Virus record (IMG/VR): IMGVR_UViG_3300038701_002052
Location: 8,456-72,455 of that record
DNA length: 64,000 nt
Direction: 5' to 3' (one strand)
From: a virus
Every line of letters starts with the position of its first letter. The stretch's first letter is position 1. Positions 3,221 through 42,649 of this stretch are shown here, one piece after another. The notes under the pieces were generated by a model. The model was not told the DNA's origin. It did not search any database and saw nothing but the letters and a program-made list of their open reading frames with translations. A program made the translations under genes and the position numbers.

Positions 3221-6200
3221 ATGGCAAACTCCATTGTCAATTTACACCGGCAGAAATTCCCGAATGACGGCAGGTCGGACGAGGAACTGACTCTAGTCTA
3301 CTCCAAGCGCCTAGGTGGCCGTGACGGGCTCCCTCAGGACTTCCTGGACGACCTGAGGTCCATCAATCGCGGGATTGACCTGGCGACGCGTCCAAGCCTC
3401 GCAGGCGAGTTCAAGGGGGCGGTGTCGAGCGGTGTGGACCGGGCACAGGCCCAGCTCTACGACACGGTTGCCCTGGGTGCGAACAAGCTGGGGCTCGAAT
3501 CGGTCCAGGCTTACGCGGACCGTGGGCGTGAGCGCAATCTGGCGGAGGCCGGTGAGAACGTCCGGTCGGTGCATTCGATCGAGGAGGTCGAGGATTTCAA
3601 GGACTTCGCCTACTGGTTTGCCGGCGTGGTCGGAGAGAACGCGCCCCAGCTCGCAGGCACGCTTGGAACCGCGGCGGCGGCGACAGGTGGTGCGGTGGTG
3701 GCAGGTGCTTCCGCTCCGGTCGTGGCAACGGCGGGCCTCATAGGTGGTGCGGCGGCGGGCTTCACCCAGACCCAGAATTTCGGCGACCTTCGTGACGAGG
3801 GGATCGACGAGGACACGGCAGGCAACACGGCGATCGCGACCGGCTTCCTGAGTTCCCTGCTCGAGGCCATCCCGGTCATGAAGGCCATCTCCCCTTACAC
3901 GCGCACCCTCGGCAAGGAGCCTGTCAAGGACGTGGTGATGGAGCTGATGAAGAAGATCCCGTCCAACGCGCTCGTCGAGGGCGGGACGGAGGTCGGTCAG
4001 GAGTTCGTCACCATGGTCGGCGAGACGCTCGCCCACCGGAAGACGGACCCTGACTACGAGATCCCGGACAAGGAGTTCTCATCCCGCATCATCAATGCGG
4101 GTGTGGCTGGTGCCGCTCTCGGTGGGGCGCTGGGTCCGGTCGAGGTGGCGGGCGATGTCTATCGTGGAAGCACGGGCCGCAGGAAGGACCCGGACCCGGA
4201 CCTCCCGCCTGCCGACAAGGCGACAGATGCATTCTTCGGCAATCTGGGACAGGACGAACAGGCCACCATCAAGGAGATGGCAGGGCGGTCCAATGACGGC
4301 GGGATCACCTTCGAGGAGGCGACGTGGCTGAGGGACAACCCGGAGCGCCGTGATTACCTCGTCTCTGTTGGTGGCAATCCGGACAACGTCCACCAGCCGG
4401 TCAGCAATCCGGTCTCGGAGCCACCTGCCCAGCAGCCGGTGGCCCCTGCTCCTGCTCCTGCTCAGCCAGCACCGCAACCCGTTGAAGTTGCTGCTCCACA
4501 GCCACAGCCACAGCCCGTGGTGGCTCCGGTTGTCACCCCTGCCCCTGCCCCTGCCCCCACGCGCACGGAAAGCCTTCAGCATCTCCAGCGGTTCGTGGCA
4601 CCTCGTGAGGTTTCCTACACACCTCCCCAGACCAAGGCCCCATCGGACGATGTCGCCAGCACGGTGCTCAAGACGCGGGTGGACGGGCGTGTGTTTGAGA
4701 CCCCGTCGGTGGTCAGGGCCATTGCGGCCAAGTTTTCAGCGAACGAGCCTTTGACTCCTGGTGAACAGGAAATCGTGGACGGCTTCAGTCCGGAGCAGAA
4801 CGAGCAGTTCACCAACATGCTCATCCAGGCCGGTGCGCCCAAGGCGATCAGGACAGGACTGGATACGCGTACGCTCGAGGAGGCGGAGACGGTGAAGAAG
4901 CAGGGCGTGAAGGCGGGCGAGGATGCCGTCGAGGGGACACGTCTTCGCGGGTTCACGCCCTTCCCGCTCAAGGTTGGGTTCAAGCTCCGCAGCGGTGAGG
5001 TGGTGGAGGGACTGGACCACACGGTCCACAGTCCCGAGCTGGACGAGATCCTTTCGGACGATTCCTCCAAGCCTTCATCCGGTTCCGCACCGTCCAAGAC
5101 CCACCGCTACGTCTTTTTCGAGGACACGGCACAGACGGCGGACCCGAAGTCGAAGGTGGTGGCACTGCCGGTCTATCGTCGCACACGGGGAGGCAGGCGG
5201 ATCGGGCGTGTCGGTGTTCCTGCCGGGGTCCCTCACAAATCCAACGAGAAGTCCGTGGCGATCTCCAAGCTGATGAAGGAGCGGAACGCGGACGGTTCCA
5301 CCCGATTCGTGCCGCTTGCCATCCGGAATGCTCACGACGTGGTGGACGCCCACGACCCTTCATCCGTCCAGTATTTCTCGCGATCTGACTTTGATTCCCT
5401 CGCCGACGCGGAACTCCGCGAGATCGGGGCGATCCAGCGCGGTGCCGAGGCTTCCAGGTTCCAGCAGCGAGGTTTTGACGAGTCCGGCAACGTGATCGAG
5501 GGACGCACTGTTTCCGGGCTGGACAGGGAATCGGACCTATCGTCCGACGACCCGATCACCCGCTTGCAGGCGACTGTTGAAGAAATACTTGGAGATTCCA
5601 TCGGGTCTCCGGTTGACATCAGCACAGCCCGTGAGATGGTGCTTGAGTTCATGGCTTCCGGCCCCGAGGAAGCCGCCATGGTTCGGGAGCTTTACGCGGA
5701 GCTTCTCAGCACAGCCATGGAGGACCCGCTGTTCTCGGAATCGATCAGAAACGACCCGTCCCTCGCGATAGACCAGATAGAAGCACATGCAGCAAAACTC
5801 GTCTCCAATTACTCGGAAGCAGCCGGAATGGGTTCGGCAGATGTTAAGAGACTCCTTGAGGGAGACAATGGCCATGCCTCGCCAGGAACTTCCGAAGTCC
5901 AGCCCGGAGATACACGAGATGATCCGGGATCTCTTCGTGGAGAAGGGACTCATAAGCGACTCCAGCCAGGAGTAGCATTCTCGATCCCGGTCGGTGACAG
6001 CCCGCGCATGAGCGGGGCCAGGGTCATCGATCTCTTCTCGCGCATCCTCAGATCCGCCACGGCCAACGGGATCAACGTCCGTGTCTTCCAGCAGCGATTC
6101 GACGCACTCACGTCGGAATTCCTCTCACGGGAAGGTGGTGCTTTTGACAACGCCTCGAACACGATCGCGCTTGTCCTGCACGACATCCAGAACCCGAACC

Positions 6201-9200
6201 TTGGCAACATCCGTGTCCTGCTCCACGAGATCGCCCACCACGTCTTCCGCAACGAGCCTGCCCGCATACGTGAGGTCATGGCGGCATCGATCGACGCGTT
6301 GGGTCGCGACGCGCTGAAGATCAACCCGGAGGCCAACCGATCCACGTCGGGGCTTGACCCAGAGGAGATCCTCGTTGAGACGGCTGCCCAGTCGATCGAT
6401 CCCGCGACAGCCCGCAGCCTGGTTCAGCGGCTGCTTGATTTCCTCAAGGGCGTTTATTTGCGGGCCTCGCTTGAGATCCAGTCCTTGTTACATCGAACGG
6501 GCGTTCGTGACATCAACCCGCACTACGCCCAGGAGTACGCGGACCTCCGATTGCGCCAGCTCGCGTTCAGCGGAGATGTCCCATCGGTCTTCAAGTGGTT
6601 CATGGGCGGCGACCCGAAGCCGGAACAACGGATTGAATACCTCACACCGACATCAGAATCATGGATCCGGGCCAGATTCAACCCGGCAACCGGACGCATG
6701 GAGACCGTGGGAGCGATCCCGTTCACCGCGGAAGATGCTGTTTTCAACACGGAATCAGCACGCTTCTCCATTCCTTCAGAGAACGCCATATCGCCCGACC
6801 AGGGAACCGCGCAGGCCGTTCCTGAAGTGGCCGCGCTCCGCAAGGTGTCAGGAGTCCTGAAGCGGTGGTTTGAATCATTTGACGGGTCCGGAGAGAACCA
6901 GACGGCGGACGGTAAACCGCTTTCCGATTACCAGGGTTTACTGAGATCCGTGCTGCCGAAGCGCATGCAGGACCCGGAGGTGGTGGAAGCTTCGAAGAGC
7001 GAGGCGCTGAAACGGCTTGGAAAGCAGCCGGTCGGTCCTGAGGTCCGGCTGGAGTCACTTCCGGAGTTCCCGCGCAAGAACGCCGCCAGACAGGCGTTGA
7101 TCCTCCTCAACCGCATACGCAAGGCGATCACGAAAAATGTCGGTAATCAGCGGTTCGAGGAGCAGAAGATCCGCAACCGCATGGAGCGTCGGGTTGCCCG
7201 TGAGGATCGACTGATCACCGCCCACACGGACGCGGATGAGGTTTCGTCCTACATCATCGAGGAGATCCGGAATGATTTCTCGGGGCTCAAGGCGGACGGC
7301 AAGGCGTTCCGAACGGCGACAGGCAAGATCACCAAGCTGTCCCAGATGATCGGCAAGCTGGACGCCAGCCTTGAAGGGGACCAGGTGCCTGCGGAATACC
7401 AGAAGGCGGCACAACGTGTCCTTGATCACCTCACCAGGACCAAGAAGTCGCGCATCGAGCTGTTTGACATCATGGACTTTCTGGTGTCACAGGGCGTGGA
7501 CTGGCACTCCGTCCCACTTGACGCCGCTCGCAGGCTTATCACCACGGCTGCATCGAGCTTTCCGGAACTGAAGGCGCTGACCACCCAGGATCAGACGGCG
7601 AATGTGCTCACGACGGCGCTGGTGCATTTCCTGCAGAAGCATTCCCACGTCGAGGCGATGATGAAGCTCCGCAAGGAGGACCTCGGGAAGCAGCGTGACG
7701 AGATGATCGCCTCGCTCAAGGCGGCACTCAAGGGCCACACGGCGGAGGTGAATCGTGCTGAGAAACTCATCCGTTCACTTCCGCGTGCCGCTGTCCACGC
7801 CGACCGGATACTCCAGAAGATCAAGCAGATCCACGAGGACCAGCGGGCTGATCATGCACGTCTCCAGCAGATCCTGAATCTCCAGTCGGTCTGGGTTTCC
7901 GGGGAACCGGTCCTGGAGGAGGAGATCCAGCGCCTTGAATCCATGATGGGGGCGGTCGGGAAGGAATTCAACGCGGTTGAGGGCGAGACCTATCCGGTCC
8001 CTGACGGCAAGGGCGGGTTCCGCATGGCGGAGTTCCACTACCCGAAGGAGAAGAAGGAGAGCGCCGCGCTGATACGCGACATGAAGGCCATGTCGGAATG
8101 GCTGGACACCATGGAGCCGGGTGACCTGCGGCGAGGTTCGGACCGCTACAACCAGGTGCTCAACGCCTACGAGAAGATCAGGGACAATTCCGTGGTCTAC
8201 AAGGCGCTGATCAACCGCGATTCGTGGATCATCAGGTTTGCCGGGTCACTGGTCGACAAGCTGGACCTGATCGGCAACCCATCCGCACAGGCCGCGGCAC
8301 GCAAGGTCCGTCGTTATGCGGCTTTTGTAAGCTCGGTTCACGAGAAGTTCGGACTGGTTCGGGGACGCCGGTGGGCCACCCTCGAGGCGGAGGCCATGAA
8401 GGCGGCTGGATTCCCACGCGGCGGTCTTGATGAGTTTCGCAGGACGTGGTTCAACCGCGCCTTCCATTTCTTCGCCCGCAACAAGGAGATCCTGATCGAT
8501 CACCCGGATCTTGCAGATGCCTACAGCGAGGCGTTCAAGCGTGCCCGCAGGCACTACATGGACGATCCCTCCACCCGTGCCATCGCGGCAGATGACAAGA
8601 AGTGGGCGGCGATGAGGCGCTATTGGGAATACACGGCGGAGACGTCAGACGCCGCGGTCGGGCTTTCGGAACGCAACGGCATCAAGGTGGACGACAAGGA
8701 ACGCCTCGGCATGTATCGGGACGTCATCGGCGCACCGCTCTTCGAGGTCATGCGGGCACCCAGTGACCTGCTCCACAATCTGGCGGACCGGATGAAGAAG
8801 CGTTGGACGGATCACCCGCTCACAAAGGCGTACGCCGGATCACTCGTCGAGGGCGGTATTGAAACACTGGACCAGTCACTTGCACAACATCTCGGAGGTG
8901 GTGTCTGGGAGGATTTTGTCGGATCGGTCGCGGAGATGTCCGGACGTGCCGGCTTCCATGGACCGGCCGGACCTGATGGCACACGCGACATTCTCCGCAC
9001 CACGGCCGTCAAGGCGGCCTATCGCATCTCGGGTGGATCGGTTTCGAGGTTCATACAGGCGCTCCACCAGGCGGGCTCCGGCGAGTCCACGACTGAATCG
9101 GTGGAGGATTACGCGGTTGATGTCCTGTCGACGCTCAACGACTGGTTCCGCTCCATCCACGGCATGAGTGTGGACCGGTCGGAAAAGGACGGGTTCTCGA

Positions 9201-11461
9201 TCACGGCAGCACAGCCGCTGATGAACGCCCGCCTCTCGGAATCCTTCCCGGAGCAGTGGGTCACCCACCGGACCTACGGTGTCCGGGACCTGAACAATCT
9301 CCTGCACACCATGGGCTACAACATCGCCTTTGGCCGCAACCTGGAGGGGATTCTTCATGACTTCAGCGTCGCGGACGCAGAGATTAAGGAGCGTGTCCTC
9401 AAACACAAGGTCGAGGTGGTGGATCGCGCTCAGGCCACCGGCAAGACCGGAAAGGCGCTCCGTGCCGAGATGGTCCGGCTGGCAGGCGGTGAGGCGGAAT
9501 TCAAGCGTGGTGAGAACGCGATCAGGGACGTGAAGCTGATCAATGAGCAGCGCCGGTCCTTCGCCGCGTTCATCAACTCGAACCATACGTCGGTCGACTG
9601 GGGGTTGGTGAATGAGGGGATCTCGGGAATGGTGGGCGCGGCGGTCCAGGGCCTCAAGACGGCTCTCGTGGACACGTCGACGGCCTTCAAGCCGATCATG
9701 GAATACGGGTTCTCCCGAACCTCCATCATGATGAGCCTTTCCATTCTGAAGGGCATCGGCGCGAACACGGCCAACTCGGCCGCGAACGCACTCCCCTTCA
9801 TCGCCGCGGAGGGAGACAGGTTCCAGCGTGACCTTTCAGACATGTCCGTCGCGGCGGGATTTGTCGACGCGGACAACGACCTCTCCGTCAAGGAGACCAT
9901 GGTCGGTGAGATGCACAGCGTGCCTCAGGCTCAGGACACGGGGCGTGCGTCCGCATTGAGCGAGAAGGCACGCCTTGCAATGCGCGGGGCCAGGACCGTG
10001 CTCTCGGTGGGGATCGGCAAAAGCTCCGGGGCTTCGAGGTCTGCAAAGCTGCAGGCTCCGTTCACGTTCATCTCCAAGACGATCAACCTCGCCGCCATCC
10101 AGGGGGCGTTCAAGATCTATGGCAATCTGGTGATGAAGATGGTGGAGGCATTCGAGTCCAACCCGTCCTTCGCCGCCGATCCGGACTTCGAGTTCACCGC
10201 GGAACAGCTCGGGTTCAGGAACACGTTCTTCGGGCTGCTTCGCGACAAGGACACCTACGCCTACCTGAGCCAGAGGTTTCAGGACGAGATGGGCATGACG
10301 CTCGAGACGGCGGCTCGCGAGGCCATGCGACGCAATGCCGGCAAGTCGCTCAAGACGCTCTTCACGCCGCGTGATCTGGCCCGCATCGGCAACATCGCCA
10401 TGACGGACCTGACCCAGGAGTCGTCCGCGACCACCACGCCGTCATCCTTCCTCTCCAACCCGGCCCTCCATGCCATGCTGCCACTGCTCAACTGGGCCAT
10501 CCGGCAGACGGTCTCGGTGTCCAAGTCGTTTTCAACGCCTGGTGGCGGGAGGTGGGACGCCGCAGCAATCCGCAAGGGATTCCTCGGCATGGCCTTTGGC
10601 GCGATTCCGATCGGCCTGCTCTACTCGGTGCTGGTGGACGAATTCGAGAAGGAGGTTCTCGGCAAGAAGGCCAACGTGCTCGACTTCGGAGGCAACCCGT
10701 TCTTCGCCATGGTCGACAAGCTGGCCCGTGTGGGCACGTTCGGACTGGCCGGTGACGCGGTCAACTCGATGATCAACCTCGACACGGCACGCCCGTTCTC
10801 GATCGATTCGCGTGTGTTCGCCGTCTCCTCGTTCATGTCCATGCTCAACACGGTCGGGACCGGCATCCAGCAGGGTGCGGCCTCGTGGGAGACGGTGGGA
10901 CGTCCCCTCGCCATGTCGCTTGGCGGAGCAGGCTACCTGTCCAACTTCCAGATCATCAACAACACGTTCGGACTGGACAACGAGGAGGCCCGCGTCAACT
11001 CGCGCATCAACGTCAACAACCACCTCCGAGCAGCCGGTCGCGAGGTGGGAATGGAGGTCCGCACCTACCGCGGTGGTGGGATCACCCCGTCCAAGACCCG
11101 CGTCCATGTCAAGGCCATGCTCCTTGCCGCCATGGGAGACGACCATAAGGCGTTCTTCGAGGCTTACAAGCGGGGTGTCGAGGCGTCCATCAAGACCGGC
11201 AAGACGCGGTCGGAGGCCGAGGAGTCGATCAAGCGGTCATTCCAGGGCTACCACCCGATGCGGTCCATCTTCCGCACCCCGCCGACGGAGCGTGACATCA
11301 GGAACGTCCTGCAGGCCATGGACGACACCGGACGTGAGGACGTGCTCGAGGCCATGAGGCTCATTGACATCTACACGAACCGGCTCGGGATCAAGACATT
11401 CACCCCGAAACGTGAACGCTCACGCACGTCGCTTTCAACATACGTCAGATCCGGTTTTTGA
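3221..11461 (+). CDS. Giant internal virion (ejection) protein with a zincin-like HEXXH metallopeptidase motif
   Basis: 2746 aa. Gly/Ala hydrophobic N-terminal segments, Pro/Gln linker, LLHEIAHHVF at 6224-6238, hydrophobic C-terminal region; position fits a podovirus ejection module. Confidence 0.7.
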   Translation: MANSIVNLHRQKFPNDGRSDEELTLVYSKRLGGRDGLPQDFLDDLRSINRGIDLATRPSLAGEFKGAVSSGVDRAQAQLYDTVALGANKLGLESVQAYADRGRERNLAEAGENVRSVHSIEEVEDFKDFAYWFAGVVGENAPQLAGTLGTAAAATGGAVVAGASAPVVATAGLIGGAAAGFTQTQNFGDLRDEGIDEDTAGNTAIATGFLSSLLEAIPVMKAISPYTRTLGKEPVKDVVMELMKKIPSNALVEGGTEVGQEFVTMVGETLAHRKTDPDYEIPDKEFSSRIINAGVAGAALGGALGPVEVAGDVYRGSTGRRKDPDPDLPPADKATDAFFGNLGQDEQATIKEMAGRSNDGGITFEEATWLRDNPERRDYLVSVGGNPDNVHQPVSNPVSEPPAQQPVAPAPAPAQPAPQPVEVAAPQPQPQPVVAPVVTPAPAPAPTRTESLQHLQRFVAPREVSYTPPQTKAPSDDVASTVLKTRVDGRVFETPSVVRAIAAKFSANEPLTPGEQEIVDGFSPEQNEQFTNMLIQAGAPKAIRTGLDTRTLEEAETVKKQGVKAGEDAVEGTRLRGFTPFPLKVGFKLRSGEVVEGLDHTVHSPELDEILSDDSSKPSSGSAPSKTHRYVFFEDTAQTADPKSKVVALPVYRRTRGGRRIGRVGVPAGVPHKSNEKSVAISKLMKERNADGSTRFVPLAIRNAHDVVDAHDPSSVQYFSRSDFDSLADAELREIGAIQRGAEASRFQQRGFDESGNVIEGRTVSGLDRESDLSSDDPITRLQATVEEILGDSIGSPVDISTAREMVLEFMASGPEEAAMVRELYAELLSTAMEDPLFSESIRNDPSLAIDQIEAHAAKLVSNYSEAAGMGSADVKRLLEGDNGHASPGTSEVQPGDTRDDPGSLRGEGTHKRLQPGVAFSIPVGDSPRMSGARVIDLFSRILRSATANGINVRVFQQRFDALTSEFLSREGGAFDNASNTIALVLHDIQNPNLGNIRVLLHEIAHHVFRNEPARIREVMAASIDALGRDALKINPEANRSTSGLDPEEILVETAAQSIDPATARSLVQRLLDFLKGVYLRASLEIQSLLHRTGVRDINPHYAQEYADLRLRQLAFSGDVPSVFKWFMGGDPKPEQRIEYLTPTSESWIRARFNPATGRMETVGAIPFTAEDAVFNTESARFSIPSENAISPDQGTAQAVPEVAALRKVSGVLKRWFESFDGSGENQTADGKPLSDYQGLLRSVLPKRMQDPEVVEASKSEALKRLGKQPVGPEVRLESLPEFPRKNAARQALILLNRIRKAITKNVGNQRFEEQKIRNRMERRVAREDRLITAHTDADEVSSYIIEEIRNDFSGLKADGKAFRTATGKITKLSQMIGKLDASLEGDQVPAEYQKAAQRVLDHLTRTKKSRIELFDIMDFLVSQGVDWHSVPLDAARRLITTAASSFPELKALTTQDQTANVLTTALVHFLQKHSHVEAMMKLRKEDLGKQRDEMIASLKAALKGHTAEVNRAEKLIRSLPRAAVHADRILQKIKQIHEDQRADHARLQQILNLQSVWVSGEPVLEEEIQRLESMMGAVGKEFNAVEGETYPVPDGKGGFRMAEFHYPKEKKESAALIRDMKAMSEWLDTMEPGDLRRGSDRYNQVLNAYEKIRDNSVVYKALINRDSWIIRFAGSLVDKLDLIGNPSAQAAARKVRRYAAFVSSVHEKFGLVRGRRWATLEAEAMKAAGFPRGGLDEFRRTWFNRAFHFFARNKEILIDHPDLADAYSEAFKRARRHYMDDPSTRAIAADDKKWAAMRRYWEYTAETSDAAVGLSERNGIKVDDKERLGMYRDVIGAPLFEVMRAPSDLLHNLADRMKKRWTDHPLTKAYAGSLVEGGIETLDQSLAQHLGGGVWEDFVGSVAEMSGRAGFHGPAGPDGTRDILRTTAVKAAYRISGGSVSRFIQALHQAGSGESTTESVEDYAVDVLSTLNDWFRSIHGMSVDRSEKDGFSITAAQPLMNARLSESFPEQWVTHRTYGVRDLNNLLHTMGYNIAFGRNLEGILHDFSVADAEIKERVLKHKVEVVDRAQATGKTGKALRAEMVRLAGGEAEFKRGENAIRDVKLINEQRRSFAAFINSNHTSVDWGLVNEGISGMVGAAVQGLKTALVDTSTAFKPIMEYGFSRTSIMMSLSILKGIGANTANSAANALPFIAAEGDRFQRDLSDMSVAAGFVDADNDLSVKETMVGEMHSVPQAQDTGRASALSEKARLAMRGARTVLSVGIGKSSGASRSAKLQAPFTFISKTINLAAIQGAFKIYGNLVMKMVEAFESNPSFAADPDFEFTAEQLGFRNTFFGLLRDKDTYAYLSQRFQDEMGMTLETAAREAMRRNAGKSLKTLFTPRDLARIGNIAMTDLTQESSATTTPSSFLSNPALHAMLPLLNWAIRQTVSVSKSFSTPGGGRWDAAAIRKGFLGMAFGAIPIGLLYSVLVDEFEKEVLGKKANVLDFGGNPFFAMVDKLARVGTFGLAGDAVNSMINLDTARPFSIDSRVFAVSSFMSMLNTVGTGIQQGAASWETVGRPLAMSLGGAGYLSNFQIINNTFGLDNEEARVNSRINVNNHLRAAGREVGMEVRTYRGGGITPSKTRVHVKAMLLAAMGDDHKAFFEAYKRGVEASIKTGKTRSEAEESIKRSFQGYHPMRSIFRTPPTERDIRNVLQAMDDTGREDVLEAMRLIDIYTNRLGIKTFTPKRERSRTSLSTYVRSGF

Positions 11462-11498: not shown

Positions 11499-13925
11499 AT
11501 GAGGTTAGTCTACGCATGGGTGGCAGCCGCCATCCTCATCACATGCTCCTCGGCTCTCGGGCAGGGGTCGGTCTATTACGTCGACTCCAAGGTCAAGCTC
11601 AAGGAGCTGAACCCCCAGGTCGGTCGCGGGCTGTCCTTCAGCCGTCCGGTCCTGCTCTACGATCCTGCTGACATCAACTCCTACGGGTTCTACATCGCGA
11701 CCAACTCCGTTGCCGGGGTTGATGACGACGCAATCATCCGGTCAGCCCACACGGACACCTACTCATGGGTCAGGATCGACACGGTCCCGCTGGCCAGTGA
11801 TTCGGTTAAGGGCAAGTTCCGGCTCTTCAGCGCCCCATCGGACCCGAATGATCCGGTCGGCTATGACAAGGAGGACACCGACGCGCTCATCGACGCCCTG
11901 CCGGTCAGTCTCGACGAGCAGGCCGATGTGGACGCCAGCGCGGGTACGACAAACCAGTTCCTGATCAAGCGAAACGTCGCCGGAGTGACTCAATACACGC
12001 CGGTCACCCCGAGGATGATCGACGCGGCTGCTCTTTACGGTGTCGACATGACCGGGGCAACGGACTCGACGGCGCGGCTGCAACACGCGATCGACTCACA
12101 CAAGACGGTGTTTCTTCCGTCCGGCACGGTCACCATCTCGAACACCATAACCCTCTACACTGACACGAAGCTGATCGGGGCTGGTCGAGACGAGGTCACC
12201 ATCACCAACTCCAACAGCTCGGTGTTTGCGTTTGTCTTGAGCACCTCGACCGACACCCCGCTTTCGGACGTTGATTCAAACTTCATTCTCGAAGGTGTGA
12301 CGATCGGATCGAAGAACGGGCTGCGTATAAACACCACTTCAGATTTCGCGGCCCGGCACCCGATCAAGGGAGTGGCAATACGCCACGTCAGTTTCCTCGG
12401 CTCTTACGGATCTGGTGAAGACGCGGACTATGAAACGGACGACGTCCCGACGATCGCGGAACTTCAGGCATTCGGCACCGGGCTTCAGTTCGTGAAAGTG
12501 TTCGACGCGGACGTGAGGAATTGCCTGTTCCAAAGGCTGGGGATCGGAACCTACCTGTTCGGCTCGGACATAAACACGTTCGAAAACAACCGCTACAACG
12601 TGAACGCAAACCATGTTTACACGACGAGGGACACGTCGACTGGAACATGGGGGTATGGTAACAAGTGGATCAATTCCGACATCCTTCAGAACAAGCGCGT
12701 TCGTGGGGTATGGATCGAGGATAACCGGCACACGCTGATTCAGGGGAACTATTTCGAAAATCATAATTATGGGTCATCCTTGTATCTGTACACGACCAAT
12801 GACATCGGGACGAAGATCTTCGCCAACCGCTTCGACAACACGGGCAACGCGACGCCCGCCATAGATATCAACCCTAAACATTCCTTCCAGTATTCGGGCA
12901 ACACCTGGAACGTCTCCACACCGCTCTCCACATTCCTGATCGGGTCAAACTCGTGGGCTCAGACGGCCCCCTCACAGATCATGGCATCATTCCGCGACAA
13001 CGGTCCAGAGACCGGGCACCCGGTGATCAACTACCCGCAGGTGGTCACCAACCAGGTTGACCCGTATCTCTTCTCGGCGATGAACCCGCAGCAGGTCGGG
13101 GGCTCTGGCGGTGCTTCATGGCCCTGGAACGTGTCATCCGCCACGGGGCGGCACGCGATCCAGACAAGCACTGGCAACCTGATCGTTTCCTTCTACCCGC
13201 TCATCTCGGATCGCGCATTCAGGGTCGACTTCACCGCTCGCGACATCTCTGGAGCGGCGGCTGATTACGCGGAGATCAAATACTTTGGAACCAGCACGAA
13301 CACGCTATTGTCGGAAACGATCGGATTCACGGACACGAACGAGGTTCAGACAATCAGTCGATGGATCGAGCTTCCCGCATCTGAAATTGCCGATGGCCGG
13401 TTACAGATCGAGTTCCTGAATGATCGTGCCGAGCTGGAGCGCATCCGGTTGACCCCGGTCTCTGGTTCGGAGTCAGTCATTCAAGGCGCTCAGACTTTTT
13501 ATCCACGAGCTGGTTCTCCGGCGATGACACTATCCGGCCGCAGCGCCGCCTACGCGTTCGACCCCACCGCATTTGAGGATGTTTCAGGGGTGCTACAAGT
13601 GCCTCGGGACTGGAAGGCGGTGAAGCTGAGGCTGCTTTATGCAAACCCATCCACGACCGCAGCCGATATTCTGTGGGCCATCTATTGGGACGAGCGATCG
13701 GTTGCGGACGACCTGACGACATCCGGCTCTGGGTACGAGCTGCTCACATCCGACGCGGGGACAACCGCCGACCTTTTGCGGGTGACCGCATACACGGCGA
13801 TCATCGATATTGACCCATCGAAGTTGCAATTCGTCCGCATAGCAAGAGGTGGGAGTGACGCACGAGACACGCTGAACGCGTCCGATGCTGAGCTGATCGC
13901 CGTTGAAATTTTGAGATACGAATGA
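11499..13925 (+). CDS. Tailspike-like right-handed beta-helix (pectate-lyase-3-like) protein with a signal-peptide-like N-terminus
   Basis: YGVDMTGATDSTARLQHAIDSHKTVFLPSGTVTI beta-helix entry motif and Asn-ladder repeats. N-terminus MRLVYAWVAAAILITCSSALG. ATG at 11499; TTG at 11490 is also possible. Confidence 0.7.
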   Translation: MRLVYAWVAAAILITCSSALGQGSVYYVDSKVKLKELNPQVGRGLSFSRPVLLYDPADINSYGFYIATNSVAGVDDDAIIRSAHTDTYSWVRIDTVPLASDSVKGKFRLFSAPSDPNDPVGYDKEDTDALIDALPVSLDEQADVDASAGTTNQFLIKRNVAGVTQYTPVTPRMIDAAALYGVDMTGATDSTARLQHAIDSHKTVFLPSGTVTISNTITLYTDTKLIGAGRDEVTITNSNSSVFAFVLSTSTDTPLSDVDSNFILEGVTIGSKNGLRINTTSDFAARHPIKGVAIRHVSFLGSYGSGEDADYETDDVPTIAELQAFGTGLQFVKVFDADVRNCLFQRLGIGTYLFGSDINTFENNRYNVNANHVYTTRDTSTGTWGYGNKWINSDILQNKRVRGVWIEDNRHTLIQGNYFENHNYGSSLYLYTTNDIGTKIFANRFDNTGNATPAIDINPKHSFQYSGNTWNVSTPLSTFLIGSNSWAQTAPSQIMASFRDNGPETGHPVINYPQVVTNQVDPYLFSAMNPQQVGGSGGASWPWNVSSATGRHAIQTSTGNLIVSFYPLISDRAFRVDFTARDISGAAADYAEIKYFGTSTNTLLSETIGFTDTNEVQTISRWIELPASEIADGRLQIEFLNDRAELERIRLTPVSGSESVIQGAQTFYPRAGSPAMTLSGRSAAYAFDPTAFEDVSGVLQVPRDWKAVKLRLLYANPSTTAADILWAIYWDERSVADDLTTSGSGYELLTSDAGTTADLLRVTAYTAIIDIDPSKLQFVRIARGGSDARDTLNASDAELIAVEILRYE

Positions 13926-27549: not shown

Positions 27550-27974
27550 TTCTCTTCCTTCTTCTCCTGCCATTGTGCCTTGCCTATCATCGAGAGGTCA
27601 TACCCGTCCGGGTAGTCGATGATGATCGTCGTTCCTTCCTCTTCACCCTTGTGCGTCTTTTCCTGCTCGACCGTGAATCTGATGGACGCTTCTGAGTCAT
27701 CGTGTATCGCGCCAGCGTAGCACAGGGCGTCGAGTAGAAACTTGCTTCCACCGAAGGCGGCGTCTTTGTCGAGAAGGCGTTTGCGGCTTTGAACAAAGCA
27801 GACAACAGGCAATCCTGCGCGTCCCTCTTCATTCGTGTACGGTCCGCCCAGTGGGATGTCCTCGAAAGAAGGTCGTTCATCGACGGGGGTAGATAGCCAG
27901 GGATACGAATGACGATTCTTGTCGGCATCAGAAGTTCGCCGCTTCCGCGGTGTTGATGGTTTCTCGGGTTTCAA
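27546..27974 (-). CDS. RusA-like Holliday junction resolvase, C-terminal catalytic part
   Basis: RKRLLDKDAAFGGSKFLLDALCYAGAIHDDS matches the RusA DxD(N)..K...D...G...DD pattern. Confidence 0.6.
   Translation of the reverse strand: MKPEKPSTPRKRRTSDADKNRHSYPWLSTPVDERPSFEDIPLGGPYTNEEGRAGLPVVCFVQSRKRLLDKDAAFGGSKFLLDALCYAGAIHDDSEASIRFTVEQEKTHKGEEEGTTIIIDYPDGYDLSMIGKAQWQEKKEEK
27587..27928 (-). CDS. Overlapping ORF resembling the RusA-like N-terminal part
   Basis: IRIPGYLPPSMNDLL..HW.R..K; ATG coupled to the dnaB stop (TGATG). Confidence 0.45.
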   Translation of the reverse strand: MPTRIVIRIPGYLPPSMNDLLSRTSHWADRTRMKRDAQDCLLSALFKAANAFSTKTPPSVEASFYSTPCATLARYTMTQKRPSDSRSSRKRRTRVKRKERRSSSTTRTGMTSR

Positions 27975-30432
27975 AACGGGTATGCTTCTTGAAAAAGGTC
28001 AGCGGTATCAGGCCGGTCGCGCCATCACGCTGCTTCTCGATCAGGAGATCAACGGCGTGGACGTCGTCATGGTCGGCACTGTCGGGGCGGTGGAGGAAGC
28101 CGATCAGATCCGCGTCCTGCTCGATCGATCCGCTGTTATGGACAACTATGCCATTCGTAACGAAATTGTTTGTTCCTGGAACGCTTAGATCGCAAACAGA
28201 ACACTCACCAGGAACGGCATCCACGCTCCTTAGACGCCCCCAACCAAGCTCCGAACATGACATATATGGGGAGTTTTTGATCGATTGAATCATGTGGTTT
28301 TTAAGAAGCTCCTCCATGGATTTCTTACACACAGACTTAAATCCGCCTGACTTCCTCTTCTGGAACCTCATGTATCGGTTTCCGGTAATCTCGCTTGCAA
28401 GCTCTACGAATATGGATGGCGCTGGGTCTATGTATCTCGGGCTTGGTGACCTGAGGCGACCAAACCTGTCCAGATTCGAGCAAATCACTTCCATTTTCTC
28501 GTTATCCTCAACACACACCCTCACTTCCCATATATCGCTATAGTAACCAACCGTTGATCGAATTCCACAGGTAAGCAAAAGCCACGAAACCTGATTGGCA
28601 AGTAATTCACTGACGGTGGAGTATTTAGCACACCCCCTAGTAACGGTTCCGTCCGCTTCCCATAACCCCGAAAGAAGCTCGCGGTGCGATTCGTTTGATG
28701 TTCCAAGATAGTCACTTGGTATGAATTTTGAATGAGCGGTGCATCCGTCTAGCCCTAGGCTCCGAAGCCATGTCATGACAGGGTTTTGGAGACACCCGCT
28801 TCTTTTACCGTTGGACAGATATGCGTCAAAAACATTATCGCTCGGCTGGTTCTTCCTGATGTTCACACTGACACCAAACTCGGACACAGATGCAACCACT
28901 TCTTCATGGAGTTCTCTCCTGTATATCAACCCAGGCGTTCCGGACATACTGCCGTTGCCTATCAACCACCCCAGTAGCTTGGCGTGCCTGACGTGGCCTC
29001 TGTTAGCATGGGGTATCACCCTTGGCGACGCTATCACATCCCTTCCCGGTTTAAGCTGATTGACCTGCTTCCACCCTGAACCTGTAAGAACAAGATGTTT
29101 TGCGGTCGCTGAAAACGACCCGAATTGAGTGTTGACCCTGAATACCTTGTTATACCTCTTTGGGATAAACTCACACTTCCTTATTACAGTGACATCCCTG
29201 TCCAGTGAAACAACCCGATCGGGCCGACTCCCAATCCGAACCGGTCCAGTTGGTGTGTAAACCCACTCCTGCTCCGGAAGACACTCCCGGAGATCGCTCA
29301 ACCTCGGCTTGCGGTTCTTCTCCTTCTCCACGTCGCGGCTGAGCTGGCTGAGTGCGATCACCGGGACGTCCAGCTCCTTGCTCATCTCCTTCAGTCCGGA
29401 CGAGATGATCCCAACCTCCTCGGTCCGGCTCATGTTCTTGCGTCCGACACCATTGGCAAGCTGCAGGTAGTCGATCAGGATCAACCGGGTCCCGTTCTTC
29501 TGCTTCTCACGGCGTGCCCTGGAACGCATCTGGGCGATGGTCAGGCCGGGGCTGTCGTCGATCATGATCGGGTAGTTGCTCAGCCTGCCGGCCGCGCCCG
29601 TCATGCGGACATAGTCCCGCTCCGTGCAGAGACCGTTCCGCAGATCCATCATGTTCACCCGAGCCATCGACAGCACCACCCGCTGGATCAGGTTGCCCTT
29701 GCTCATCTCGAGTGAGAACACATGGCAGTGAGACCCCTTCTCCATGACCGACTCGACGATGTTCATCGCAAGAGACGTCTTCCCCATCGCCGGCCTCGCG
29801 GCGAGGATGTAGAGCTTGCCGGGGTGGAGCCCTCCCGTGATGCGGTCCAGCTTGCTGAAACCGGTGCTGAGCCCGTTCACGCCACCGTCCGCATGGGTCG
29901 CCGCCTCGATGTATTCCAATGCGCTGATGACCTCGTCCTTGATCGAGAACGTCGATTCCTTGTGGACCGCCTTCCCCACCGACCCGACCCGCTCCTCGAT
30001 CATGGACACCAGGTCCGACGTGGAAGCCTCCCGGTCGTCGATCTTTTCCGTGATCTCCGCCACCGCCGACCTGAGGTCGCGCCTCACCCAGCAGTCCACC
30101 ACCATGTTCAACCAGTACTTCAGGTTGAGCGCCGATGGCACCGAATCCAAACACTCGCTCAGATAGACGATCCCGCCGACCTGCGAAAGCAACGAGGATC
30201 CCAGCATCTCAGCGACCACCGTCTCCAGAGAGACCGGCTTGCCCGCCCTGCTCATCCTCTGGAGCAGCTTGAACAGCTCCTTGTGGCGGATGTCGAACAT
30301 CAGCTCGGCCGGGTCGGGGTGGACCGCCTCCACCTGGGCCATGCACATGCCGCAATCCAGGATCAGGCAGCCGATCAACGCACGCTCGGCATTCTCGTTG
30401 TGAGTGGGGGGAGATGTTGCTTCTTTTGACAT
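27928..30432 (-). CDS. dnaB: Replicative DNA helicase DnaB with an intein
   Basis: AERALIG, ILAARPAMGKTSLA, FSLEM, LILIDYLQL, SQLSRDVE..PRLSDLRE|intein|SGSIEQDAD. Confidence 0.95.
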   Translation of the reverse strand: MSKEATSPPTHNENAERALIGCLILDCGMCMAQVEAVHPDPAELMFDIRHKELFKLLQRMSRAGKPVSLETVVAEMLGSSLLSQVGGIVYLSECLDSVPSALNLKYWLNMVVDCWVRRDLRSAVAEITEKIDDREASTSDLVSMIEERVGSVGKAVHKESTFSIKDEVISALEYIEAATHADGGVNGLSTGFSKLDRITGGLHPGKLYILAARPAMGKTSLAMNIVESVMEKGSHCHVFSLEMSKGNLIQRVVLSMARVNMMDLRNGLCTERDYVRMTGAAGRLSNYPIMIDDSPGLTIAQMRSRARREKQKNGTRLILIDYLQLANGVGRKNMSRTEEVGIISSGLKEMSKELDVPVIALSQLSRDVEKEKNRKPRLSDLRECLPEQEWVYTPTGPVRIGSRPDRVVSLDRDVTVIRKCEFIPKRYNKVFRVNTQFGSFSATAKHLVLTGSGWKQVNQLKPGRDVIASPRVIPHANRGHVRHAKLLGWLIGNGSMSGTPGLIYRRELHEEVVASVSEFGVSVNIRKNQPSDNVFDAYLSNGKRSGCLQNPVMTWLRSLGLDGCTAHSKFIPSDYLGTSNESHRELLSGLWEADGTVTRGCAKYSTVSELLANQVSWLLLTCGIRSTVGYYSDIWEVRVCVEDNEKMEVICSNLDRFGRLRSPSPRYIDPAPSIFVELASEITGNRYMRFQKRKSGGFKSVCKKSMEELLKNHMIQSIKNSPYMSCSELGWGRLRSVDAVPGECSVCDLSVPGTNNFVTNGIVVHNSGSIEQDADLIGFLHRPDSADHDDVHAVDLLIEKQRDGATGLIPLTFFKKHTRFETRETINTAEAANF
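28135..29283 (-). mobile_element. Intein (383 aa) with a LAGLIDADG homing endonuclease
   Basis: Starts CLPEQEWV and ends NFVTNGIVVHN before Ser; LLGWLIGNGS and LLSGLWEADG blocks; visibly AT-richer than the extein. Confidence 0.92.
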
Positions 30433-35016: not shown

Positions 35017-35280
35017 TTGTTGACCCGTTTTGAGGCCGAACTCGCTTCAATTCACTCCAATTCCTCACTCGCGCCGAATCCGGCTTTCGCCCGTAACTCG
35101 CTGAAACACCAACCCGTTAAGCCACTTCCATCACCCCACCCACCAATCCCCGTCCCGGTTTCCGGAACCGTAGGTTGTGGGTTCGATCCCCGCCCCGCGT
35201 ACCACTCCCCACCAAGGACTTGCGAAGATTCTGGAAGATGGCTAAAACTCACCCGTTGACTGATTGTTGACCCGTTTTGA
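35008..35280 (+). mobile_element. attP region: 26-bp direct arm repeats flanking a tRNA-derived core
   Basis: GTTGACTGATTGTTGACCCGTTTTGA at 35008-35033 and 35255-35280, immediately upstream of the integrase. Confidence 0.8.
35156..35204 (+). tRNA. 3' part of tRNA-Arg(CCG) serving as the attP core (not a complete tRNA)
   Basis: CGGT-TTCCGGA-ACCG anticodon arm, AGGTT variable loop, GTGGG-TTCGATC-CCCGC T arm, CCCGCGT-A-CCA end; no 5' half or D arm. Confidence 0.8.
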
Positions 35281-39078: not shown

Positions 39079-39375
39079 TCAAAACAACGTTGGCTGGTTC
39101 GTGTCAGAATACTCCCGGATCAGCCTCTTGCGATACGGCGTGAAGCTCTTCACCTTGACGCCTGAAACGGTCCACCCAGCCGCTTTGGGCGCTCCGGCCT
39201 CCACAAACCGATCATAGACCGACCTTGGGACCTTCTGCCCAACCAACCCGGAAAGCCACCCCCTTGAAAACGGCCATTCAACCCCAAGGATCTCCACCTG
39301 GACACGCCTGAAACCTCCCTTCGGCGTCTTTCCGGCATGCAGGTTCTCACGAGTCAATTCCACCATCTCTTCCAT
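39079..39375 (-). CDS. Hypothetical phage protein
   Basis: GGFRRVQVEILGVEWPFSRGWL motif. Confidence 0.55.
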   Translation of the reverse strand: MEEMVELTRENLHAGKTPKGGFRRVQVEILGVEWPFSRGWLSGLVGQKVPRSVYDRFVEAGAPKAAGWTVSGVKVKSFTPYRKRLIREYSDTNQPTLF

Positions 39376-39401
39376 GCCATCAAATTCCCACCTATTCTCA
39401 C

Positions 39402-39430
39402 TTGCGTCAAGACGCAGTTGCCCGTAACTT
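39402..39430 (+). promoter_or_regulatory. Sigma70-like promoter with an overlapping CCCGTAACT operator
   Basis: TTGCGT-N17-TAACTT; also contains the palindrome TGCGTC-AA-GACGCA. Confidence 0.55.
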
Positions 39431-39435
39431 GGGGT

Positions 39436-39970
39436 TGGATCATTCCGCGTGGTCCTTACATATCAGCAGGCGTTGCTGGTCTCTTCCACAGGTGTACACG
39501 GTGCGCGGGCCGGCCTTGGAAGGGGTCGCTCTCAGAGCGTAAACGCCTCCGAGTTCAGTTGGGAACCCCACTGCGGCCAACACCGCAGACCGAGTGACCT
39601 GAAACACGGCACGACGACGGGCTCGTTAAACATACCGCCTCTCCAGGTGGAGAGGATGGGGGAGTCTATAAGCTCCCCCATACCGTCGCGGCTTAACAGC
39701 CGTGAAACCTTGGTTCGGGGGAAGATCACCCCTGAGTGCGCTACAGGGCAACCGGGCGCATCTGTCCCAGCAAAGGACCGAGGTGCGGAAAGAACACTCC
39801 CAAAGTGTTCGGGACCGCCATGCAACCATACTCGTCGTTTGGACGGTTGAAACGGTGCAAAAGCGCCAAGCATGTTCACTCTCCACTGAGACTGGAGGGT
39901 GAACTGTGCCCCAGCCTGCCGAATGGAGCGGTGAAACGGGTGTTAAAGCAGACACGGCGCTTGCATAGCA
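39436..39970 (+). ncRNA. Candidate large structured ncRNA (about 530 nt)
   Basis: More than 10 hairpins plus long-range helices forming multiloops; no convincing ORF; promoter upstream and next promoter directly downstream. Confidence 0.55.
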
Positions 39971-39974
39971 CAAC

Positions 39975-40002
39975 TTGCACAACACGTAACTTGGGCTACC
40001 TT
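39975..40002 (+). promoter_or_regulatory. Sigma70-like promoter with a CACGTAACT operator in the spacer
   Basis: TTGCAC-N16-TACCTT, 10 nt before ATG 40012. Confidence 0.5.
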
Positions 40003-40011
40003 CTGGCCCAC

Positions 40012-40254
40012 ATGAGATACAACAACAGGACGAACAAGGGGCTGACGGGTACACCAACGCAGATCGAGCCGCAACCCGGCCGTACAAGTACAGGAAAGAT
40101 CAGCAGATACGAACAACTGCTCCGAAAGAAATCCCGTCAACCACTCAGCCCGCAAGAACACGCCAACCTCATCACACTGGCCGGAAAACTCGGCAAGCTG
40201 ACCAAGAAGGAGGCCGGCAGAATCCTCAAAAAGCTGCAGGCTCATACCAGATGA
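40012..40254 (+). CDS. Small basic hypothetical protein
   Basis: MRYNNRTNKG...; follows the promoter. Confidence 0.5.
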   Translation: MRYNNRTNKGLTGTPTQIEPQPGRTSTGKISRYEQLLRKKSRQPLSPQEHANLITLAGKLGKLTKKEAGRILKKLQAHTR

Positions 40255-40712: not shown

Positions 40713-40777
40713 GTAAATCGACATTACACACGAATTCCCACTTGCACAACCCGTAGTTACAGGTCACATTCCCGGAC

Positions 40778-40894
40778 ATGAAACACAAGACCCTCACCCC
40801 CGGCGACTACCTGGTCTCAATCCTAGGTGGAATCTTCCTCTTCCTCATCGTCACCCAGGCCGTACAAAGCGGCTGCGCCATCATCACGCCATGA
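40778..40894 (+). CDS. Small single-TM protein
   Basis: MKHKTLTPGDYLVSILGGIFLFLIVTQAV; TTGCAC promoter and operator directly upstream. Confidence 0.45.
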   Translation: MKHKTLTPGDYLVSILGGIFLFLIVTQAVQSGCAIITP

Positions 40895-41783: not shown

Positions 41784-41796
41784 TAAGTCGTTGATT
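41784..41796 (-). promoter_or_regulatory. IHF-consensus site
   Basis: Minus strand AATCAACGACTTA matches WATCAANNNNTTR; overlaps the palindrome GTTGATTATCAAC. Confidence 0.45.
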
Positions 41797-41884
41797 ATCA
41801 ACGGTTACCTACAGAATTGTGGGAAAATTGCTAGCAGTTGGGCGGTCAATCGTTACTAAAACAGGCCGGACCTATCCCCCTACT

Positions 41885-42600
41885 AAGTGTTCGAAATGCG
41901 GTTCGGGAACACGGTAAATGCAAAGCGTTTGCAATTCCCAACAAGCGCGGACGGTGAAGCGGTTTCGTTCTGACTACGCTTGGTTTCCATGAAACCTTCT
42001 GGGTTGTAGCTCTTGACGACTCCCCTTTGACGGTGACACGGTGATCAAAGATCCTGCGTTGCTGAATGCGGACCCTTCCGTATCCCTCTGGTTCGCAGAG
42101 GTTTCGGTTTGAGAATTCCGCAGCGGTGTAGGCCTGATGCCGGCCTAGCTGGATCGACTCCAGCCATCAGAAGCCCCAGCGAAACAATTGGGCGCGTATC
42201 TGAGTGACCCCTACCGCATGGCAGAAGTGTGAAGGAAGCACGAACGAGAGACGCGCTTATAGCATGGCGCGGCGGGGTGCGCACCCTTGCTTTCGGACGG
42301 TGAGCCAGCTAACGGGCAAACAAATTTGGTGGAAGCCTGCAATGAAACCGGGCAAGCGGAGTGCTTGAAACCTTGGCATTGTGGGTTGATTAGGTGGGCG
42401 CGTTGTGCGTCGCCACACTGGGGGAATGGTCCCCGCAATCCCTTGTGATGGACAAGGAAAGGCACGTCAGTTACAGCGGGCGAGGTTTTACGTTGTGGCA
42501 GTGTGCGTTGGTTAATGGAATTGGACCGGTATTGATTCTTTGAATCGTTATCGGTCCATGTCCATTTGTGGTGCTCTGCGGGGCATTACAAATGGGCAAT
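41885..42600 (+). ncRNA. Second candidate structured ncRNA or long structured leader (about 700 nt)
   Basis: Dense hairpins, a possible pseudoknot and a T-arm-like stem-loop; no convincing ORF. Confidence 0.45.
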
Positions 42601-42649
42601 ACGTCCAGACGTTGCCGGTCGTGATACCGGCTTTTGAATGGGAGATGCT

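Follow-up and report, generated by a model that had tools for sequence, protein, structure and literature searches.

As far as we know, few RNAs of bacteria and phages exceed ~400 nt and have an intricate, conserved fold, and those that are known have proved to be ribozymes, ribonucleoprotein scaffolds, and, most recently, RNA-only cages. Smaller phage RNAs also bear on the locus described here. The pRNA of phi29-like podoviruses (~170 nt, located at the genome end) is strongly divergent in sequence among relatives with its fold preserved, while the P4 CI and P1/P7 c4 RNAs are short (under ~100 nt) and act through defined complementary repeats, with heteroimmune alleles swapped as cassettes (P1/P7, P4). 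Among the large RNAs, ROOL and GOLLD are often phage- or prophage-borne. Both are reported to form RNA-only homo-oligomers (PMC12286853).

Here we analyzed a 64,000-nt stretch (the window) that covers most of the length of a 77-kb IMG/VR virus record, and found that the gap around 39.4-40.0 kb very probably holds a structured RNA element on the + strand that is both genuine and conserved. Our main reading, to which we assign a probability of roughly 0.6, is that this element is an uncatalogued structured non-coding RNA of ~535 nt (~39437-39970, + strand) that is transcribed from a promoter-like site (P1), stable, and trans-acting; judged from the sequences searched, it appears confined to a small lineage of temperate phages. 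By analogy the RNA seems closest in kind to ROOL and GOLLD, though it is a member of neither: like them it is a large, many-helix, phage-borne non-coding RNA with no associated protein partner identified, but it matches neither model at E values up to 10, no shared conserved blocks were noted, and it sits in an early control region between divergent small genes. With P4 CI and P1/P7 c4 it has in common that a non-coding transcript (predicted here) heads the early operon of a temperate element and that alleles differ between close relatives, but ~500 nt are structurally constrained in our case and no target complementarity was found. As with phi29 pRNA, a phage-encoded structured RNA diverges strongly in sequence among relatives with its fold kept, but nothing ties the window RNA to packaging genes, TerL being located 20 kb away.

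A strongly folded non-coding gap

The record's phage is temperate, and two "algae metagenome" runs, both DNA runs and both possible sources, contain the same DNA as the window; no RNA run that contains it was listed. The RNA lies in a 636-nt gap between a divergent small gene of 98 aa (39079..39375, - strand; called as a gene on the contig, codon-usage score +0.18) and a downstream gene of 80 aa (40012..40254, + strand, starting at ATG 40012), both of which are conserved neighbors of the RNA. A tyrosine integrase is encoded 3 kb to the left, and the gap occupies the lysogeny/early control region. The 80-aa protein is basic, with a predicted three-helix C-terminal part (AlphaFold pLDDT >90, residues 30-79), and fold and atlas searches returned neither a recognizable family nor a significant fold match for it or for the 98-aa protein. 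The nearest genomic relatives of the integrase (24-27% identity) are nearly all Verrucomicrobiota, mostly Opitutae MAGs, a weak hint that the host may possibly belong to the Verrucomicrobiota. The attP site (window 35158-35204) includes a tRNA-Arg(CCG) 3' half, and since a 40-nt stretch of it (35163-35202) had no exact match in 185,579 species genomes, the host is probably outside the sequenced species representatives. Elsewhere in the window, a DnaB-type helicase (27928-30432, - strand) is split by an intein with a LAGLIDADG domain (Pfam), and the structural region holds a single ORF of 2746 aa (3221-11461, + strand).

The two flanking orphan genes served as the route to relatives. HMMER matches to the 80-aa protein (P0011 and P0013) led to contigs L064 (SRR33375164) and L065 (SRR33375167), and a cluster look-up led to L067 (SRR33375161), a 17.9-kb contig; all three are Logan assemblies from public metagenomes. 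These relatives are syntenic with the window phage, with integrase DNA ~70% identical and the leftward gene 40-79% identical at the protein level (the 98-aa protein is 40% identical to the product of L067 8373-8696, and that L067 gene is 79% identical to L064 2426-2713), and they have in common a layout of a small leftward gene, a gap of ~600-850 nt, and a small rightward gene. Within the gap, blastn aligned the window with L065 at 70% identity over 243 nt (E 1e-18) and, for L067, found a 22/22 match and extended the homology to 39543. Over 39543-39911, the window is 69-70% identical to both contigs.

Further searches covered several sets. No homolog was found by blastn with all three alleles against 50,697 phage records, nor in IMG/VR with four RNA patterns or in scans with the 80-aa protein, TerL, and a small-protein alignment; the scan with the 98-aa protein yielded only one 25-residue match, in contig L002. 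Among genomes of possible hosts, BLAST in 401 genomes titled Opitutae returned only short chance matches in a transposase-like gene, a covariance model of the RNA core (R1, described below) had no match over 151 genomes of a single order in this class, and a profile of the 98-aa protein found no homolog in 401 Verrucomicrobiota genomes. An nhmmer search over 500 kb of integrase-linked loci found no RNA homolog, word-based protein searches returned the window's own proteins only, and an integrase search yielded one 65% relative (L005) whose contig ends before the RNA. In the sets searched so far, the RNA appears to form a small family.

We folded every 500-nt segment of the 77-kb genome on both strands and regressed the energy on composition. 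Segment 39421-39920 on the + strand was the top folding outlier of the genome (residual -42.8 kcal/mol, 4.4 SD), with the next-best segment outside the gap far behind (residual -27). The folding energy of 39430-39990 is -239 kcal/mol on the + strand, which corresponds to a z-score of -4.8 against dinucleotide shuffles (-3.7 on the - strand), so that stability is clearly beyond shuffles in the comparison that an earlier note on this DNA had proposed. A 200-nt z-scan confined the excess structure to ~39500-39910, and the homologous gaps in relatives gave folding z-scores of -5.5 and -4.9.

A second large structured gap lies at window 41787-42637 (z = -5.7 on the + strand), at the turn of the cumulative GC skew (~42 kb), even though every gene between 40 and 49 kb lies on the + strand. 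In L067, a syntenic 744-nt gap (13040-13783) precedes a 30%-identical protein and is without nucleotide similarity to window 41787-42637. This second gap may represent an origin of replication or another RNA; comparison with the gap at 39.4-40.0 kb led us to reject it as a paralog of the RNA.

The ORFs that overlap the gap at 39.4-40.0 kb, several of them 115-172 aa long, all have negative codon-usage scores typical of shadow frames, and none has a Pfam match. One gene caller starts the downstream gene at ATG 39820 and IMG at 40012; in an exhaustive HMMER search, the alignment of the homolog P0011 starts with its residue 1 opposite the Met at 40012, P0013 aligns inside the same 80-aa gene region, and neither extends upstream of 40012. 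Indels of 1, 2, and 4 nt run throughout the gap in the alignment of the window with L067, and recoded readings under alternative genetic codes gave no convincing ORF. Codon-level conservation of an overlapping ORF, which the earlier note had named as evidence that would count against its proposal, was not seen, the scores being shadow-like and the indels frame-breaking. We see no sign of coding in the gap.

Architecture and covariation

Comparison with Rfam 15 by cmscan gave no match at the gathering score anywhere in the window. At E values up to 10, the region 39200-40200 had four chance-level matches only, all to unrelated families, and at E values up to 1 there were none in L064 and L067. 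The earlier assessment that this is an undescribed RNA, distinct from GOLLD, ROOL, RNase P, tmRNA, and group I/II introns, agrees with this lack of an Rfam match in the window and its homologs. We accordingly rejected ROOL (RF03087), GOLLD (RF01998), HEARO, raiA, OLE, and other Rfam 15 families for want of a covariance-model match. A retron msr/msd or a DGR template RNA was rejected because the 77-kb record (~87% complete) has no reverse transcriptase (PF00078), in a search in which control genomes matched. An OMEGA/TnpB guide RNA was rejected since the record has no PF07282 match and the neighbors are proteins of 80-107 aa, this being a search with the TnpB model only. A type III toxin-antitoxin RNA or CRISPR-like array was set aside because the gap has no tandem repeats, only short and irregular ones (copies of UGAAAC, for instance, are spaced 103, 145, and 84 nt apart).

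The RNA would begin with a 5'-terminal hairpin (39437..39455, + strand; GGAUCAU / GUGGUCC, pair probability 0.92). A hairpin of different sequence is found at the same place in L067, with 4 compensatory pairs, and in L064 the hairpin is 8 bp long and differs in sequence from both. The 5' domain that follows (39456..39623, + strand) includes three blocks of 17-22 nt that are invariant between the window and L067, namely a 22-nt block at 39457-39478, ACGCCTCCGAGTTCAGT, and CGACGACGGGCTCGTTAAAC, and the two-sequence consensus of the window with L067 has 50 pairs in this domain, 11 of them compensatory and 0 broken; a MAFFT alignment of the domain that includes L064 is unreliable. Next comes the conserved structured core (39624..39916, + strand), which comprises 14 helices with 71 modeled base pairs in 293 nt, including a multi-helix junction closed by 39707-39714 / 39777-39784. 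The 3' part (39917..39970, + strand, with a putative 3' end) holds a terminal stem-loop formed by GAGCG 39926-39930 and CGCUU 39958-39962, with an inner stem of GUGUU 39940-39944 and GACAC 39951-39955, and an equivalent stem-loop of different sequence is present in L065 and L067.

For the core, a sequence-based alignment of the window with L065 gave a consensus of 71 pairs, 12 of which changed on both sides and 0 of which were broken. The covariance model R1 (39624-39916), built from this consensus, matches the window, L065, L067, and L064, which is every known copy, and the much more divergent L064 copy is matched at full length (26 bits, E 4e-7). When three or four sequences are considered, pairing holds in 97.4-98.1% of cells (the L064 row being fitted to R1). 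The homolog collection and covariation analysis proposed in the earlier note yielded 22 compensatory pairs among the 71. The distinct alleles number only three and come from related phages, which leaves formal covariation statistics (R-scape) without power. As controls, shuffles gave ~9 +/- 2 compensatory pairs, with 0 of 500 reaching 22, and partners slid by 1-3 columns gave 1-5. The full-length two-sequence consensus energy is -138.6, whereas column-shuffled alignments gave -76.7 +/- 6.6 (z = -9.4). A search of the unpaired columns revealed no conserved 5-nt pseudoknot.

All of the sequence features listed in the earlier note are present where it had placed them, and covariation in homologs backs the helices CCTCTCC/GGAGAGG, ATGGGGGAG/CTCCCCCAT, GAACACT/AGTGTTC, and GGTGC/GCGCC, the helix CCTTGGTTC/GGACCGAGG (with covariation in 6 of 7 pairs), the 12-bp stem at 39874-39904, and CTGCGG/CCGCAG. 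The proposed long-range helix CGACGG/CCGTCG is not kept in L067. The idea that four copies of UGAAAC act as tertiary modules did not hold up either: their count is at chance level, with 49.5% of 636-nt genome windows holding some hexamer at least four times, they are absent as conserved copies in the homologs, and the genome-wide excess of TGAAAC is largely due to ATGAAAC at gene starts.

Promoter-like sites, borders, and exchange between phages

The promoter-like site P1 (39401..39436, + strand) consists of TTGCGT (39402-39407), a 17-nt spacer, and TAACTT (39425-39430), followed after 6 nt by the first hairpin of the RNA. In L064 and L067 we found TTGCGT-N17-TTACCT, then 6-7 nt, then a hairpin, so three alleles with unrelated hairpin sequences agree in the -35 box, in a spacer of 17 nt, and in a distance of 6-7 nt to the hairpin. 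Relative to a shared CCCGTAWCTTGGGG motif, the P1 register of L064 and L067 is shifted ~11 nt from that of the window because the window has a 10-nt insertion in the spacer; since the promoter register and the first hairpin moved together, we take this arrangement to mark a true start site, the hairpin being 5'-terminal. The window's TTGCGT-N17-TAACTT fails a strict sigma-70 scan, the consensus used being of E. coli type. The earlier claim that the RNA has its own promoter is thus borne out by the inter-phage comparison as far as a promoter-like site is concerned, and fails in its strict sigma-70 form.

A second promoter-like site, P2 (39975..40011, + strand), comprises TTGCAC (39975-39980), a 16-nt spacer, and TACCTT (39997-40002), and ends 9 nt before ATG 40012 in the window. 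In L064 and L065 it reads TTGACA or TTGACT, a 17-nt spacer, and TACATG or TACCTG, ending 8 nt before the ATG. Scored against the E. coli consensus, both P1 and P2 are weak. No Shine-Dalgarno sequence precedes the downstream gene in any allele, and with P2 ending 8-9 nt upstream of the ATG, the mRNA would be leaderless or almost so. A third copy of this promoter class, P3 (window 40742-40780), has TTGCAC-N17-CACATT and ends 7 nt before ATG 40778. The motif class CTTGC..AAC.CGTA has only three copies in the genome, which are P1, P2, and the one before ATG 40778, suggesting that the RNA is co-regulated with the first early genes. Leaderless expression seems to apply to the early genes here, and the spacer element AAC.CGTA, conserved across the early promoter-like sites, could be an operator. 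A CCCGTAACT-like motif occurs in 23 copies within 3 mismatches vs. 15 expected, among them window 11475, 35090, 39421, 39983, 43080, 54623 (- strand), 57179, and 58774, several at gene junctions.

Comparison among the relatives also bears on the 3' border. The mosaic block that differs between L064 (2770-3302) and L067 (8753-9300) forms a unit of 533-548 nt, in agreement with the length of ~530 nt and the end point proposed earlier, and the stretch that is invariant between L065 and L067 ends at about L065 nt 336; from these two borders, the 3' end of the RNA would fall at ~39960-39972. No intrinsic terminator was found 3' of the RNA, so read-through into the early genes may occur, which would favor a role as a leader. 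P1 transcripts would then extend across the structure and into the early operon to its right (the 80-aa gene and replication genes), and the fold, acting in cis as a 5' leader, would control elongation, termination, stability, or translation of the operon. The RNA is indeed on the early-gene strand and directly upstream, it also heads the operon in L064 and L067, and P1 belongs to the motif class common to P2 and P3. We nevertheless consider such a leader unlikely, as P2 intervenes between the RNA and the first ORF at the same short distance from the ATG in all alleles, and with no Shine-Dalgarno sequence the downstream gene seems built for leaderless expression; moreover, the mosaic block stops before P2, and the 14-helix core is far larger than any antitermination or attenuation element that we know of.

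Two pairs of contigs were compared across the RNA. L064 and L067 share 93% identity through P1, and beyond the RNA their alignable blocks are 77-91% identical. Their RNA blocks are unalignable by BLAST, yet both fit model R1, with the swap beginning at the -10/TSS of P1. L065 and L067 differ at 1 of ~336 positions in the RNA segment vs. 67 of ~940 beyond it (Fisher P 4e-7), the single difference in the RNA core being a change from U-G to C-G. Taken together, the block swap and the near-identity suggest that the RNA behaves like a module under constraint that phages exchange as a unit, although the near-identity of L065 and L067 could reflect recent exchange instead of purifying selection.

Such replacement between phages with 93% identical flanks, as in heteroimmune alleles, and a location 3 kb from the integrase, within the lysogeny/early control region, would fit an immunity regulator akin to P4 CI or P1/P7 c4, in which a processed small RNA would pair with targets and silence early genes. 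A word-7 BLAST of the gap against the genome, with short seeds beyond its reach, revealed no extended complementarity other than the gap's own hairpin arms, and the constraint extends over the whole 500 nt, beyond what a short antisense loop involves; on this evidence we regard an immunity RNA of this type as improbable.

Strand, molecule, and proposed role

Both strands of the gap fold better than shuffles, which would suit hairpins formed in single-stranded DNA at a replication or priming, packaging, or recombination site. On the + strand, however, the model holds ~23 G-U cells vs. 5 unpaired cells, in line with the earlier remark on G-U pairs, and the same cells would be A-C mismatches on the other strand. 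The homologs carry GAAA tetraloops where the window has other loops, as well as C(UUCG)G loops, while the window's own hairpin loops contain no GNRA or UNCG motifs. The G-U cells and the GNRA/UUCG tetraloops lead us to read the hairpins as RNA instead of DNA, with the + strand favored, and a promoter-like site at a fixed distance from the first hairpin, together with a GC-skew turn that is 2 kb away at ~42 kb, likewise makes a single-stranded DNA element very improbable. Unannotated protein-coding genes, despite the overlapping ORFs and the caller's start at ATG 39820, and chance structure in a non-functional spacer deserve almost no credence, given codon scores, missing family matches, indels, and recoded readings that all speak against coding, protein homology that begins only at 40012, and 22 compensatory pairs and a z-score of -9.4 that chance cannot account for.

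We therefore return to the reading of a stable, P1-transcribed, trans-acting non-coding RNA, which is favored by its size, its multi-domain conserved fold, its 5' hairpin, the separate P2, and its module-like exchange, features that would suit an RNA which is stable and serves its own function. Transcription would proceed rightward from the early-class promoter P1 and produce a transcript consisting of the 5'-terminal hairpin, the 5' domain, the 14-helix, 293-nt core, and the 3' stem-loop. This RNA would end just before P2, which would drive the next, leaderless gene. As a stable trans-acting molecule, it might, early in infection, form part of a complex of RNA and protein or of RNA alone, as a scaffold or as a decoy, and the exchange of cassettes between near-identical phages would fit a specificity determinant. 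The free-standing, trans-acting nature of the RNA, taken as a separate claim, we hold tentatively and at somewhat less than even odds.

A bolder and more doubtful proposal is that these RNAs represent a new class of large phage RNA, acting as a free-standing RNA-only or RNA-protein assembly or as a decoy of a host system, in which the sequence is a swappable specificity cassette. If this is true, such a cassette would be replaced wholesale among near-identical phages with the 14-helix architecture kept. The analysis adds a candidate RNA class from a poorly sampled phage lineage, and defines for it a promoter-like site, borders, and three divergent alleles that can be synthesized for probing or cryo-EM. 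Finally, the cassette-like replacement within 93% identical flanks hints that RNA, not protein, may carry specificity in the control region of these phages.
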